In this document: positions 4,435-21,514 of the stretch, in pieces
Numbering within the stretch: position 1 is the first letter of the stretch
How the letters are laid out: each line of letters begins with the position of its first letter
Source: a virus
Virus record (IMG/VR): IMGVR_UViG_3300045221_000018
DNA length: 37,864 nt
Direction: 5' to 3' (one strand)
Notes under the pieces: model-generated
Databases searched by the model: none
What the model was told of the DNA's origin: nothing
What the model saw: only the letters and a program-made list of their open reading frames with translations
Position numbers and translations under genes: made by a program

Positions 4435-5385
4435 ATCAATTAAATATTAGAAAGTCTTGAAGTAGGAATTGGCGTTCCTAAATCAAGATGTGCCAAGAAT
4501 ATCATACTATTCGAGGTACGTGTTACTTCCTAACTGATATAACTATTGTATCAAATTAGAGGTAAAAATCAACAGGTAAGAACCAACAGGACGTAAAAGT
4601 CAGGAACTTACCAGAGGGTTATACAGCGTACTTTGAATAAGGCGCAAATGTATAACTCTTTTTTTATACAAGTATTCAACAGCAACGGTCAAAATGCACA
4701 GCCGTTATCCACATATCCTAGCAACTAGGCGGAGAACACTAACTCCGATGATTCAAAACAGTGCCCAAATGCAGTGTAATCTCCACTGGTGCGGGTTGTG
4801 GGGCGTGAAGCAGTCTTTGATACGTCCAAACCGAATGGTAAAGCCTAAACGAGTGATCGCAAGGTAAAAACAGAAGTTATTAACCGATAACAGACAGGGT
4901 GGCTAAAAGGCTGTCAGGTGCTTTCTAAGCATTTGATATGCAGAGACATGTAAGGCAGTACAATCAGTCGGAAACGGCAACACAGAGGAATGTCAGAGCT
5001 GTGGTAGTAAGGTGCTAATCAACGAGATGAGTTTGCGATAGGCGTGCTTCGTGACGAAGTGGCTAAACAAGCGGTTGTCCTAACAGAAGTAAGTTATTTA
5101 TTTTTTAACTTATTTCTCAATTTCAGGGGACAACTGTATACTCCTGACGAACTAGCGTTCAAAAGTGGCTGATTTGGTCTGGTTCTTCAAGGTTTTTTTG
5201 AACGAAAGTGAAAGAAATGCCTGCCGGCTTGAGGCTTCCAAGTGAGCTAACCTGAACAACAATCGGGGCAGTAATTAAAATGCTCTTGACTTAGCCTAAA
5301 CTTGTACAGCGAGCGTTGGTGCAGCGTTGACAAACGACTTCATGTTACACTGTTGCGATAGCCAGTAGAAACGAGGTCCTTACAC
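4435..5385 (+). ncRNA. candidate large structured non-coding RNA or structured leader (about 950 nt), family unassigned
   Basis: The track has no ORF of 60 aa or more on either strand across 4218..5385. The promoter at 4400..4428 lies upstream. Many perfect helices are present (coordinates in findings), including a GAAA tetraloop hairpin at 4967..4978. G+C is about 48-50% on two hand-counted 60-nt lines (4741.., 4801..). Confidence 0.55.
4618..4666 (+). terminator. internal terminator-like or attenuator-like hairpin with a U-run
   Basis: gttataca (4618..4625) pairs perfectly with tgtataac (4649..4656), followed by tcttttttta. The alternative pairing tgtata (4649..4654) with tataca (4665..4670) competes. 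Confidence 0.35.
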
Positions 5386-5979: not shown

Positions 5980-6480
5980 ATGCATAAATTTGATACTAAA
6001 ACTGCTTTAGCAAAAGAACTCAATATTACACGAGGAACTTTATACGCAAGGGCTGAAAAATATGATATTAACATTAATCAGTTGAACAGTGTTGGTTTAA
6101 CTGATGAAGAGTTAGCTCAACTTTCGTCAGATGGGAATGTAGAGTTAAACAATAAATCAAACAAAGAATTTGCACGTTTGTCGGCGGAGATTGAACGTTT
6201 GAACAAGTTGAACGAGGAGCTTTCAAACGAACGTACGAATGCACAAACAGAAGCGACAGAATACAAGGAAAAGTTTGAAGCGTTAAACAAAGATTTTATT
6301 TCCTCATTAAAGGAAGCTAATGAAAAATACTATCGTCTGTTCGATCAGTCTCAGATTTTACAATTGAACGGTAAAACAAGTAAGGATGAAGATGTTACTT
6401 TAATTGATAAGGACAAAACTGAACAGACACCCGAATTAGAACCTAAAAAAGGCTTCTGGTCACGTTTATTTGGTAACTGA
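5980..6480 (+). CDS. putative DNA-binding protein: N-terminal HTH plus coiled coil
   Basis: 166 aa. TKTALAKELNITRGTLYARAEKY resembles a helix-turn-helix. The remainder is heptad-like and charged. SD GGAGG lies upstream. Confidence 0.55.
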   Translation: MHKFDTKTALAKELNITRGTLYARAEKYDININQLNSVGLTDEELAQLSSDGNVELNNKSNKEFARLSAEIERLNKLNEELSNERTNAQTEATEYKEKFEALNKDFISSLKEANEKYYRLFDQSQILQLNGKTSKDEDVTLIDKDKTEQTPELEPKKGFWSRLFGN

Positions 6481-18800: not shown

Positions 18801-19165
18801 TGACGTTTGATGAAGTGGTTGAAATTATTTGGGGCAACATATTGGGCATAGATGCATCTGATGAACCAGGTAAGAAAGATTTTATTATTAAAGACGATAT
18901 GGTTGCTACTGGTCGTGAAGGTTTGACTTTTTTAATTATGGAATTAAAAGACACTTATGCACCAACTATTGAGATGACGCATTACGAAAAGCAAGTATTT
19001 GACAGCTGGTTAAAGGAAGATGATTTTGATACACCTTTTTCTGGTTTCCTACACCATCTAGGTGAATTAGGTGGATATGAAGATAGAGGATTATTCTTAG
19101 ATTTATCAGAAAAAGATTTAATGCAAGCGTGGTTGCATCCAGAAACGATTAAAGTAGTTGACTAA
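18800..19165 (+). CDS. hypothetical protein (about 121 aa)
   Basis: Track ORF 18794..19165. ATG 18800 is coupled to the upstream stop. Confidence 0.55.
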   Translation: MTFDEVVEIIWGNILGIDASDEPGKKDFIIKDDMVATGREGLTFLIMELKDTYAPTIEMTHYEKQVFDSWLKEDDFDTPFSGFLHHLGELGGYEDRGLFLDLSEKDLMQAWLHPETIKVVD

Positions 19166-19181
19166 AAGGGAGATTAGATTA

Positions 19182-19877
19182 ATGAGTTATTTAAAGTGGT
19201 TAGGAACAGAATTAAAGAGTATTAATACAGCTGGTGGTGTGATGTTGGCATTTATTGTCGGCGTACAATTAGCATTCTACTTGTCAGCACCGATTACAGG
19301 GCTATCAACGATTACACTGGTGGCAACTTTGGTTGGTTCAGCATGTACTGTTTATATGTCACTTGGAAAGCCAATTAATGGACTGCTAGGACTAATCAGT
19401 GCGATTGGGTTCATCTACATTAATTGGACCGCAGGACACTATGCGAGTGTGTTAGATCAATTAGTATTTATTGCATTGATTGACCTGCCGTTAATCTTCA
19501 CGTGGAAAACGTGGGGACACAAAGTTGAAAATGGTGTGAAGTTCTTAACTAAAACAGGTTGGCTATTAACAATTGCTTTCATCTTAATCGCTTGGTACCC
19601 GATGATGTTGGCTTATCAAACATTAGGCGATACTAATCCACTTTGGGACAGCATCGTGTTGATTATTGGAGCAATGGCTAGTTTGTATGTATTCAAAGGT
19701 TACGGCGATAGCTACACACTTTGGTTGGCATCTGATGCCGTTAATATTCTGCTATGGGTATCAGCGCTATTTGCAGGATATTCAGCAAGTTCACTGCCAA
19801 TGCTACTAACTATGAGCTTCTACCTTGCAACAGCCTTATATGGTCGTTTCTGGAGCATTTGGCGAGGTAATAAGTAA
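19182..19877 (+). CDS. pnuC: PnuC-like nicotinamide riboside/NMN transporter
   Basis: About 231 aa and multi-TM. NPLWDS...NILLWV...YGRFWSIW resembles the conserved PnuC segments PFWDS...NWLLWV...GxxxW. ATG 19182 has an upstream SD. Confidence 0.6.
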   Translation: MSYLKWLGTELKSINTAGGVMLAFIVGVQLAFYLSAPITGLSTITLVATLVGSACTVYMSLGKPINGLLGLISAIGFIYINWTAGHYASVLDQLVFIALIDLPLIFTWKTWGHKVENGVKFLTKTGWLLTIAFILIAWYPMMLAYQTLGDTNPLWDSIVLIIGAMASLYVFKGYGDSYTLWLASDAVNILLWVSALFAGYSASSLPMLLTMSFYLATALYGRFWSIWRGNK

Positions 19878-20166: not shown

Positions 20167-20607
20167 ATGGCAGATAAATTGGATAAGCTATTGAGTGATT
20201 ACTTCACAGGTGTTTTAGATGCCAACATTAAATTACGTAGAGCAGAATTGAAATATTTTAGTAAGCATGTACCAGATGAAAATATCGGTGGCGGACGTAA
20301 ACAGAATGATTATAGTAATCCAATTGAGTTGTCTATGATCCGTGAAGAAGATGATGACGAGTTGAGCGCTTGGATTTGGCAAAAGGAAATCATTGATATG
20401 TGGTATGAATTAACAGTTGAACCGCAACGAACAATATTGTCTGAACGTTATGGTCGTAAGAAAAGCTGGTTAGCAATTTCATTGATTGTACATGCTGATG
20501 AGCGTACATGTAGGGAATGGCGAGATAGATTCAAGCAGGGAGTAGGAGTTTGGTTAAGTGATACACCTGAGAGGGTGCACCGTTTTAATTCCATTAACCA
20601 CCCGTAA
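20167..20607 (+). CDS. late-gene transcriptional activator (RinA/ArpU type)
   Basis: 146 aa. It is the last early-region gene before the HNH and terminase genes. C-terminal HTH-like segment SWLAISLIVHADERTCREWRDRF. Confidence 0.5.
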   Translation: MADKLDKLLSDYFTGVLDANIKLRRAELKYFSKHVPDENIGGGRKQNDYSNPIELSMIREEDDDELSAWIWQKEIIDMWYELTVEPQRTILSERYGRKKSWLAISLIVHADERTCREWRDRFKQGVGVWLSDTPERVHRFNSINHP

Positions 20608-20610
20608 CGA

Positions 20611-20630
20611 CTGATATATCAGCCTATAAT
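20611..20630 (+). promoter_or_regulatory. palindrome CTGATATATCAG followed by TATAAT (-10-like, no good -35): candidate activator-dependent late promoter
   Basis: Perfect 12-bp palindrome at 20611..20622. TATAAT at 20625..20630. Confidence 0.35.
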
Positions 20631-20724
20631 AGGTATTGTGGAAAGTTGGTTAGTTAGTCACACAGTCGTAAATTGACGCTTTGCTTAATATGCTAAAACA
20701 ACAACAACTAACCAATGATTCATA

Positions 20725-20836
20725 GCAAGCGTGGCGGAATAGGTAAACGCTAGTCACAAGTAAAAGCAGTACATTAGCTGAGGCGTGTACGTGACGATAC
20801 GTAAGTAATGTTAGGTGCGAATCCTAACCGCTTGTA
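20725..20836 (+). tRNA. class II (Leu-like) tRNA-like element with a non-canonical, expanded anticodon arm
   Basis: Acceptor gcaagcg/cgcttgt. U8. D-arm GGCGGAATAGGTAAACGC is nearly identical to bacterial tRNA-Leu D-arms. Variable arm is tac-GTAA-gta. T-arm is ttagg-TGCGAAT-cctaa. No 7-nt anticodon loop is present. Confidence 0.45.
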
Positions 20837-21089
20837 TAGTAAGTTAATGTAAATGTACGTAATAGGCAACACCGAGTATGTCCGTCATGAGGACGCCTTA
20901 ACTAGCTAGGCATTACATACTTACGAAAGTCCACGGTAACTCGTGGCATACCACAAACGAAAGTATGAAGGTGACTGTCTTGCACAACATTATGGCAGGA
21001 CAGAATACTAGTTATCACTTTAATTATTAGTTGTGGATAAACGATAGAAACTAACATAGTTATCAGTGCAGGGCACGTTACTATCGTTG

Positions 21090-21153
21090 GCAATAGCAGG
21101 TGGTCTTATTTCTTAATTGGAATTATGCAAGGTTCGAATCCTTGGCTATTGCG
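21090..21153 (+). ncRNA. tRNA-like acceptor/T-arm minihelix (64 nt, no D-arm)
   Basis: gcaatagc (21090..21097) pairs with gctattgc (21145..21152). Canonical T-arm caagg-TTCGAAT-ccttg at 21128..21144. Confidence 0.5.
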
Positions 21154-21162
21154 TAAGACACA

Positions 21163-21193
21163 AGGTTATCCAATCGGGTAGCCTTTTTATTTT
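21163..21193 (+). terminator. rho-independent terminator
   Basis: aggttatcc / gggtagcct stem (two G-U pairs), loop aatc, then tttttatttt. Confidence 0.75.
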
Positions 21194-21214
21194 GCACTGA
21201 AAAGGAGTAAAGAT

Positions 21215-21514
21215 ATGAACTTATACAAGATTAGCCAAGACGTGAATAATGACTGGGATACATTTGATTCCGCTGTTGTGGTTGCTAACAGCGCTGAAGA
21301 GGCTAAGAAGATTATTCCATATTTTACAAATCAAAACATTGACACTTTGTCTAATCTCCCATTTTTGGATTTGATATGTGGAGATCATAATAGCACCGAT
21401 AAGTGGGCGAAACCAGAAGATGTGAAAGTTGAATTAATTGGCGTTGCCGATAATGATTTCTTAGATAGTTTAGACGGACGAACAACGGTTGTTGCTAGTT
21501 TCAACGCAGGGTAA
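21215..21514 (+). CDS. hypothetical protein (99 aa)
   Basis: Track ORF with SD AAAGGAG upstream. Confidence 0.6.
   Translation: MNLYKISQDVNNDWDTFDSAVVVANSAEEAKKIIPYFTNQNIDTLSNLPFLDLICGDHNSTDKWAKPEDVKVELIGVADNDFLDSLDGRTTVVASFNAG

Follow-up and report, generated by a model that had tools for sequence, protein, structure and literature searches.

What does a phage keep in front of its packaging genes where no protein is encoded? The question is raised by a siphophage-type genome of 37,864 nt (IMG/VR record IMGVR_UViG_3300045221_000018, JGI metagenome contig Ga0485922_00523; this whole stretch is called the window, and coordinates given without a locus label refer to it), in which a late activator gene of the DUF722/ArpU type (20167–20607) and an open reading frame (ORF) of 99 aa (21215–21514) are separated by an ORF-free locus of 607 nt, positions 20608–21214. 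A first-pass annotation of the letters had read this gap as a single large structured RNA of the ROOL or GOLLD type with two tRNA-like modules embedded in it. The two tRNA-like modules are real (module A, 20725–20836; module B, 21090–21153); the single large RNA is not borne out, and comparison with relatives has shown the locus to be a modular untranslated leader of the late packaging genes, in which a conserved frame surrounds a variable slot. Module A belongs to a very widespread, almost wholly unannotated phage family of tRNA-like RNAs that is absent from Rfam 15.

The gap between the activator gene and the 99-aa ORF holds no sense ORF of at least 60 aa, as the annotation had said, and its single sense-strand ORF of at least 25 aa is a 27-aa TTG ORF that overlaps the terminator described below. 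An antisense 63-aa ORF (20902–21093) has its frame broken in relatives, with indels of 1, 1, 1 and 11 nt in the relative L004. That the gap is structured RNA holds for the + strand only, which folded better than its shuffled versions (z = −2.64, 0 of 100 shuffles as good), whereas the − strand gave z = −0.59. The six helices listed in the first pass do pair, five of them perfectly and one with a single G-U. No module showed above-chance antisense complementarity to the remainder of the phage genome.

The tRNA-Leu-like element and its family

Module A is composed of the following parts:

20725–20836, + strand: module A, an anticodon-less tRNA-Leu-like RNA of 112 nt
20725–20731/20829–20835, + strand: its 7-bp acceptor stem (GCAAGCG/CGCTTGT; G1-U72)
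20732, + strand: U8, followed by G9
20734–20750, + strand: D arm, GCGG-AATAGGTAA-ACGC
20751–20809, + strand: insert of 59 nt in the anticodon-arm position
20810–20828, + strand: T arm, GTTAGG-TGCGAAT-CCTAAC
20836, + strand: discriminator A (A73)

In its 7-bp acceptor, its U8 and its D arm with G18G19, module A is built as a canonical tRNA, but the T arm has a 6-bp stem and the loop UGCGAAU in place of a 5-bp stem and a U54-U55-C56 loop, and the 5-bp anticodon stem with its 7-nt loop is missing from the cloverleaf. A genome pattern search with the 5′ half of module A gave 97 matches, mostly real bacterial tRNA-Leu genes whose D arm is letter-for-letter that of module A, and a minority of the matches have the odd features of module A instead of those of real tRNA-Leu. 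With bacterial class II tRNA-Leu the element shares, besides acceptor and U8, the D arm GCGG-AAUAGGUAG-ACGC, G18G19, C56, U48, A73 (in the window) and a long arm just 5′ of the T stem. It differs from class II tRNA-Leu, across the family described below, in having a linker of ∼2–15 nt or a tiny hairpin where the anticodon stem-loop would be, a T stem of 6 rather than 5 bp, the loop UGCRAAU (G55 for U55) and an arm of 30–200 nt, and in being detected by neither ARAGORN nor the Rfam tRNA model RF00005.

In the window, ARAGORN at default settings called 0 tRNA or transfer-messenger RNA (tmRNA) genes and neither module, and RF00005 gave no match at E ≤ 10 in 20500–21300; no tmRNA call for the locus came from ARAGORN, its -m run included, or from Rfam. 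A short-intron tRNA was rejected, because ARAGORN with introns of up to 300 nt and lowered thresholds, a check proposed in the first pass, returned only poor and implausible models; real group-I-intron tRNA-Leu genes from the same scan look quite different from module A. An attP remnant was also rejected, since the element has the two tRNA halves, which covary, and since it occurs in phages LP65 (family Herelleviridae) and SPP1, which we take to be virulent and non-integrating.

A covariance model, R1, was made from 109 phage copies with the window and all Weissella relatives left out. Module A reached 69.6 bits on R1 over model positions 1–110 of 110 (E = 1.1e-16), and R1 scored the elements of SPP1, phiJL-1 and Sha1 at 81.9, 81.9 and 70.1 bits. 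The family has a covarying 7-bp acceptor, U8, the tRNA-Leu D arm, U48, a 6-bp T stem with the loop UGCRAAU, Y-A-U directly 5′ of the T stem and no anticodon arm, and every family trait is found in module A (stems of 7 and 6 bp, U8, U48, the UGCRAAU loop and the insert). The insert that replaces the anticodon arm is a hypervariable structured arm of ∼30–200 nt. Typically it is made up of a long hairpin preceded by a short linker or mini-hairpin, and the long hairpin stops 2 nt before the T stem, where class II tRNAs have their variable arm. The insert differs even between phages with identical acceptor stems, and compensatory changes are seen in it within lineages, for example between loci L107 and L115.

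In 117 distinct copies, 92% of cells were paired compared with 67% in shuffles, and compensatory changes were found in all seven acceptor pairs and in four of the six T-stem pairs. The covariation score was 0.665 against 0.154 for shuffled copies, with none of 500 shuffles reaching it and slid controls at or below 0.15, and the sixth T-stem pair itself covaries (G-C 101, A-U 6, G-U 6, C-G 2). Moreover, the stems contain 49 G-U or U-G pairs but only 16 A-C or C-A, and this excess indicates strand-specific selection at the RNA level. Judged by these substitutions, the module A family is under strong structural selection in more than 100 phages.

The family was collected from at least 120 IMG/VR contigs by a two-block pattern, and matches were present in 134 INPHARED records, ∼50 of them, from cultured Firmicutes phages, with both conserved blocks; the hosts include Enterococcus, Listeria, Leuconostoc, Lactobacillus, Paenibacillus, Brochothrix and Weissella; it also occurs in metagenome-assembled genome (MAG) contigs of Acidobacteria and Kiritimatiellia. 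In the Bacillus phage SPP1 the element is intergenic and on the same strand between head genes 9 and 11. Three L. plantarum phages carry it, phiJL-1, Sha1 and LP65; in LP65 it lies inside a tRNA gene cluster, on the strand of the tRNAs, and in Sha1 the synteny is that of the window (RinA, element, terminator, HNH, TerS, TerL). No constant protein partner was found among 193 ORFs flanking the IMG/VR copies, which implies that any partners are host factors; recurrent neighbours in this set are DUF1492, DUF722 and sigma-70 r4 genes upstream and HNH or terminase genes downstream. Typical members gave no match in Rfam 15 even at E ≤ 10, and among the INPHARED matches listed nearly all are without an annotated feature. 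A hypothetical ‘orf80’ is annotated over the LP65 element (L230 2294–2434) and is probably a spurious coding sequence; hypothetical coding sequences under the blastn match in Listeria phage B025 (gp64) and Enterococcus phage PEF1 may be spurious as well.

Fremin et al. 2023 (PMC10690425) reported 10,006 unnamed RNA candidates from IMG/VR, phage structures termed ‘tRNA or tRNA-like’ among them, and the module A family may be among these candidates. The main text of that paper gives five candidates that overlap ARAGORN tRNA calls and describes no anticodon-less tRNA-Leu-like class (PMC10690425). Our literature search found no description of such a phage class, and the 2018 revision of the SPP1 genome does not mention a tRNA.

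Several records of the family deserve a remark of their own. The phiJL-1 record ends 3 nt past its element (L232 36569–36674), and the element is within ∼100–740 nt of a record end in Leuconostoc phages Ln-9/LN34, Listeria phages B025 and LP-101, Enterococcus phage VEsP-1 and Liquorilactobacillus UCMA21115; the element may thus be a marker of the sequence immediately 5′ of cos/terS, or its closeness to the ends may only reflect the linearisation of the records. In Lachnospiraceae contigs, Rfam gut-2 (L055 5013–5060, 42.9 bits) lies within ∼15 nt of a Leu-like element and int-alpA (L044 6513–6666, 40.2 bits) ∼230 nt from one, and ordinary tRNAs are also nearby, so these slots seem to gather several small phage RNAs. 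A record named ‘Hujiaoplasma phage zrk29-2’ and listed with a Tenericutes bacterium as host carries an element (OP650937.1, 37992–38101) that is 100% identical over 110 nt to that of the IMG/VR contig L115, a type otherwise matched only in L. plantarum phages, and it may be worth checking the host or purity of this record.

A conserved frame around a variable slot

The frame around the modules consists of four features:

20611–20630, + strand: promoter-like element, the 12-bp palindrome CTGATATATCAG (20611–20622) and then TATAAT (20625–20630)
20637–20724, + strand: leader hairpin, a perfect 10-bp helix (20646–20655/20706–20715) plus outer pairs
21162–21195, + strand: intrinsic terminator from a terminator scan, AAGGTTATCC-AATC-GGGTAGCCTT and then TTTTTATTTT
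21202–21217, + strand: ribosome binding site (RBS) AAGGAG and the ATG that starts the 99-aa ORF, the first of the late genes

Because a blastn search of 50,697 phage records with the locus as query matched nothing, relatives were sought via the ArpU protein and DNA patterns, and one metagenome scan yielded a further locus, L233. Relatives were found in genomes of Weissella fangxianensis, W. thailandensis and W. sagaensis, and the host of the phage, which is of the cos type, is therefore probably Weissella. In a public assembly collection, 275 blocks carry the ArpU-type protein in exactly its 146-aa form. The two loci retrieved with it, among 24 contigs read, match the RNA locus of the window letter for letter, which suggests a common and almost clonal phage among the samples sequenced.

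Loci L001 and L002, with an ArpU protein 97% identical to that of the window, share with it 20600–20754, 20809–20838 and 21162–21219. These stretches cover the initial 150–155 nt, the 3′ end of module A and the terminator; everything between them is replaced by unrelated content, another tRNA-like RNA and ORFs in L001 and ORFs in L002. In L100 only 12 nt separate module A from the terminator, and the HNH gene follows directly. Common to all Weissella relatives is a frame of promoter-like motif, leader hairpin, module A, variable slot, and terminator with RBS.

The palindrome with TATAAT and the clean terminator were both already noted in the first pass, and both stand. No −35 element is evident at the promoter-like site, and the relatives keep the motif TAATAGG..(C/T)ATAAT-N5-TTGTGGAA at an unchanged distance from the leader hairpin. 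The hairpin runs up to the 5′ end of module A; its helix base GAA..TTGG / CCAA..TTC is retained in divergent relatives despite differing loops, and an A-to-G change in L001/L002 turns one U-A pair into U-G. The terminator has a 10-bp GC-containing stem (21162–21185) before its U run (TTTTTATTTT). It is 90–98% identical in L001, L002 and L005, where it always lies directly 5′ of the RBS of the first late ORF, and L100 and L233 have the same hairpin with small changes. In L233 and L001 a second copy of terminator and RBS flanks extra small ORFs, as in moron slots.

Three observations concern the variable parts. The block CTTTTTATTTTGCACTGAAAAGGAG, which comprises terminator tail and RBS (21178–21214 in the window), recurs after different hairpins, at L001 5677–5718 and on the − strand of L233 ∼730–790 from the high-coordinate end of the locus; these copies flank inserted small ORFs and resemble a reusable recombination cassette boundary. 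The slot of L001 contains a 103-nt element (4808–4910) to which the Rfam tRNA model gives 38 bits but which ARAGORN does not call; its acceptor, D arm and T arm are normal, and its anticodon arm, with a bulged stem of 8 bp and a loop of 8 nt, is over-long. The insert of the 46-nt Weissella variant (L004 locus 660–715, − strand; also L001, L002 and L036) has a 9-nt direct repeat, ATACCAGTG...ATACCAGTG, with its copies 12 nt apart, for which slippage or an insertion scar are possible origins.

What the leader may do

We consider it fairly probable that the locus is a late leader of modular RNAs whose tRNA-like modules are excised by host enzymes into non-decoding tRNA mimics. The leader would be transcribed late from the + strand, and in each tRNA-like module host RNase P and RNase Z would read the stack of acceptor and T arm and the elbow that the D and T loops form; their cuts would excise the modules, trim the late transcript and free stable tRNA-shaped RNAs unable to decode. 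RNase P and RNase Z need just the acceptor/T stack and elbow, and excision is suggested because these parts are the ones conserved. Speculatively, a freed mimic might then target, in trans, a host factor able to read the tRNA-Leu shape without the anticodon. Leucyl-tRNA synthetase (LeuRS) is the obvious candidate; enzymes that process or modify tRNA and defence nucleases directed at tRNA are others. That module A represents a previously undescribed and widespread phage class of tRNA-Leu-derived non-decoding mimics, made in infection and acting in trans in this way, is a tentative proposal about which we are more doubtful than confident. The usual explanations for tRNA genes in phages are codon usage and escape from anticodon nucleases, and neither accounts for a look-alike that is abundant and strongly selected yet unable to decode; if true, a trans-acting mimic would be a new layer of phage–host conflict, and the presence of the element in SPP1 makes genetics and biochemistry immediately possible.

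For bacterial LeuRS, the anticodon arm is dispensable for leucylation, and the identity set of bacterial tRNA-Leu includes A73, U8-A14 and G19-C56 (PMC2377443). The corresponding nucleotides are present in module A (A20836, U20732/A20738, and GG at 20742–20743 with C20818), and the family keeps U8, A14, G18G19, C56 and U48. However, the tertiary pair G18-U55 is critical for leucylation (PMC2377443), and module A has a G at 20817, as have all pattern-selected members, in which G55 was required by the search pattern.

Several points weigh against the proposed excision and mimicry. Charging by LeuRS is doubtful because position 55 is G and not U, and because the discriminator is A in only 59% of family copies. 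The D arm and T loop are invariant in the alignment partly because the pattern used for collecting required it, and copies found otherwise vary slightly (LP65 GGTATACGC, phiJL-1 GTGG, and the loops of L055 and L096). Mere processing signals would need neither the conserved G55 nor the long structured arm, and the acceptor/T stack is 13 bp, compared with the 12 bp measured by tRNA enzymes. Promoter activity at 20611–20630 is suggested by a conserved motif, a terminator just upstream of the late genes means that late expression needs regulated or partial read-through, and the module A family is known here as sequence. The 13-bp stack recalls tRNA-Sec, which EF-Tu rejects, and exclusion from the ribosome is thus conceivable.

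Other tRNA-shaped RNAs offer partial precedents. Plant mitochondrial t-elements and the MALAT1 mascRNA are tRNA-shaped, non-decoding parts of longer transcripts that RNase P and RNase Z can read, and module A resembles them in acceptor/T-arm stack and elbow geometry, although cleavage here is only predicted; they belong to eukaryotes or organelles and have no sequence relation to the phage family with its G55 and 6-bp T stem. Like tmRNA, module A has an acceptor/T-arm part that does not decode, and a large insertion separates its T arm from the 5′ strand of the acceptor; unlike tmRNA, it has no tag ORF, G3-U70 or pseudoknots, its D stem is full and its inserts are far smaller. The tRNA-like domain of the bacterial Y RNA YrlA reportedly has D and T arms and no anticodon, is said to occur in phages too, and is said to have its acceptor-like helix closed while the RNA termini form the Ro-binding stem; in module A the termini form the acceptor stem, and no Rfam match was obtained.

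Of the other explanations, a cis-regulatory late leader that controls read-through into the packaging genes, with the tRNA-like folds as processing or stability signals only, deserves most attention. The lambda PR′-tR′ 6S leader, a promoter-proximal RNA that ends at a terminator, is an analogue, and the conservation of promoter-like motif, leader hairpin, terminator and RBS around variable content fits this idea, as does the recurrence of the position after an ArpU/RinA-type activator in Sha1 and in part of the IMG/VR set, where DUF722, DUF1492 or sigma-like genes stand upstream and HNH or terminase genes downstream. Yet the placements in the LP65 tRNA cluster and between SPP1 head genes indicate that the element is not tied to a late-operon leader, and a pure processing signal leaves G55, the 6-bp T stem and the structured variable arm unexplained; hence we regard it as rather unlikely. 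We think it very unlikely that the modules are functionless decayed tRNA genes left from a phage tRNA cluster, although tRNA finders reject both, module B is degenerate and AU-rich at its centre and is without relatives, and sequence is often gained and lost in this region. A pair of degraded tRNA pseudogenes was what the first-pass annotation had said would overturn its own claim, and for module A this is wrong, given the structural selection described above: its acceptor and T stem stay perfect across dozens of stem sequences, and its departures from a canonical tRNA (the 6-bp T stem, G55 and the missing anticodon arm) recur in Weissella, Lactiplantibacillus and Bacillus phages, with two-block matches in Listeria and Enterococcus phage records; the element also occurs in the Acidobacteria and Kiritimatiellia contigs. 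Features so kept across distant phages point to purifying selection rather than decay.

An RNA of the ROOL or GOLLD kind, ornate and ∼555 nt long from putative start to terminator, forming a single folded or multimeric particle, would agree with the better-than-shuffled folding of the + strand. ROOL and GOLLD also sit in prophages near tRNAs, and the locus resembles them in being prophage-borne and non-coding, beside tRNA-type sequences and of similar overall length. However, Rfam 15, searched with the ROOL, GOLLD, tRNA and tmRNA models included as the first pass had advised, gave no match at gathering score in the whole window; ROOL (RF03087) and GOLLD (RF01998) gave none at E ≤ 10 in 20500–21300 with permissive filters, where sensitive mode returned chance-level matches alone (E > 1). 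Moreover, where ROOL has one conserved multi-helix fold of ∼580 nt, conservation here is by module and not across modules, and the interior is swapped wholesale at 97% ArpU identity and shrinks to 12 nt or contains ORFs in some relatives; a single RNA of this kind is extremely improbable. We give as little credence to a DNA-level site for cos/packaging recognition or recombination, which would suit the position of the element 10–740 nt from the record end in several small siphophage records (3 nt in phiJL-1). The stems tolerate G-T three times more than A-C, unexpected for duplex DNA, and their sequences covary freely; the element is mid-genome in LP65 and in SPP1, the latter presumably a pac phage, and record ends are often set arbitrarily at terS. 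The excision of non-decoding mimics from a modular leader is the explanation we retain. For annotation, the modular leader shows that long empty gaps before the packaging genes of cos phages of lactic acid bacteria are cassettes of tRNA-derived RNA between a conserved promoter-like motif and a terminator and should not be taken for single giant RNAs; the module A family escapes both ARAGORN and Rfam 15.

The rest of the slot and the flanking genome

Downstream of module A the slot of the window contains the following:

20837–20922, + strand: multi-branch domain, a long-range stem (20839–20852/20911–20922) enclosing small hairpins
20923–20946, + strand: ACGAAAGT, then the hairpin CCACG-GTAACT-CGTGG
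20950–21089, + strand: ‘mid2’ domain of 140 nt, helices CCACAA/TTGTGG, GTGA/TCAC, CTGTCT..GC/GC..AGGACAG, GTGC/GCAC and AACGATAG/CTATCGTT
21090–21153, + strand: module B, mini tRNA-like, with a perfect 8-bp acceptor GCAATAGC/GCTATTGC and T arm CAAGG-TTCGAAT-CCTTG

The fold scores rank 20946–21089 first (z = −3.7), ahead of the leader hairpin (−2.5) and module B (−2.4). The multi-branch domain has an alternative helix, 20875–20881/20915–20921, and its minimum free energy fold gave z = −1.1; no homologue was found in any collection searched, and the domain is specific to the phage of the window. The adjoining 20923–20948 is identical in L233. For the octamer ACGAAAGT, which the first pass had noted, the three positions given (5202, 20923 and 20957) are right and a fourth lies at 6120 on the − strand, and the enrichment is marginal (4 copies against 1.3 expected; 3 of 100 shuffles reach 4); the second copy of the locus is AGGAAAGT in L004. 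mid2 is 75–79% identical in L004/L079 and L233, and three sequences compared over 35 consensus pairs showed 3 compensatory changes, 5 one-sided changes that still pair and 2 broken pairs, so that mid2 is probably a real structured module within this thin sample of three lineages. An 18-mer of the middle region had only chance matches in IMG/VR. Weak Rfam matches to FMN and SpF41 were rejected as T-loop-like sequence or acceptor/T-arm plus terminator, and a resemblance of GGTGCAAATCC to the cobalamin riboswitch was rejected without an Rfam match.

Where a tRNA has its D and anticodon arms, module B has only 30 AU-rich nt, and it stands outside the module A family (11.9 bits on R1); its T arm is canonical, unlike that of module A, and a T-arm/acceptor 25-mer was unmatched in IMG/VR. 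In L004 and L233 different anticodon-less tRNA-like elements occupy its position, and a Leu-like element is also paired with a mini tRNA-like element in Sha1 (L231 2278–2338), phiJL-1 (L232 ∼1158–1218) and SPP1 (L234 ∼1614–1661). The mini element of Sha1 and phiJL-1 reads acceptor, TG, GGC-TAATTGG(C/T)AA-GC(C/T), 10-nt linker, T arm and acceptor, ∼60 nt without an anticodon arm, and that of SPP1 is an acceptor/T-arm mini-helix followed by TTTTT, which may double as a terminator.

The late block downstream of the locus begins with the 99-aa ORF, followed by two small ORFs, the HNH endonuclease gene, TerS and TerL. The other ORF-free unit of the genome (4217–5386, ∼1.17 kb) gave only chance-level Rfam matches at E ≤ 5 and no blastn match in the 50,697 phage records, and R1 found no tRNA-Leu-like element in it. 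Two genes upstream of the ArpU-type activator, with a 74-aa ORF between, a gene for a PnuC-type nicotinamide mononucleotide transporter is present at 19158–19877 (Pfam NMN_transporter, E = 4e-26), an auxiliary metabolic gene.

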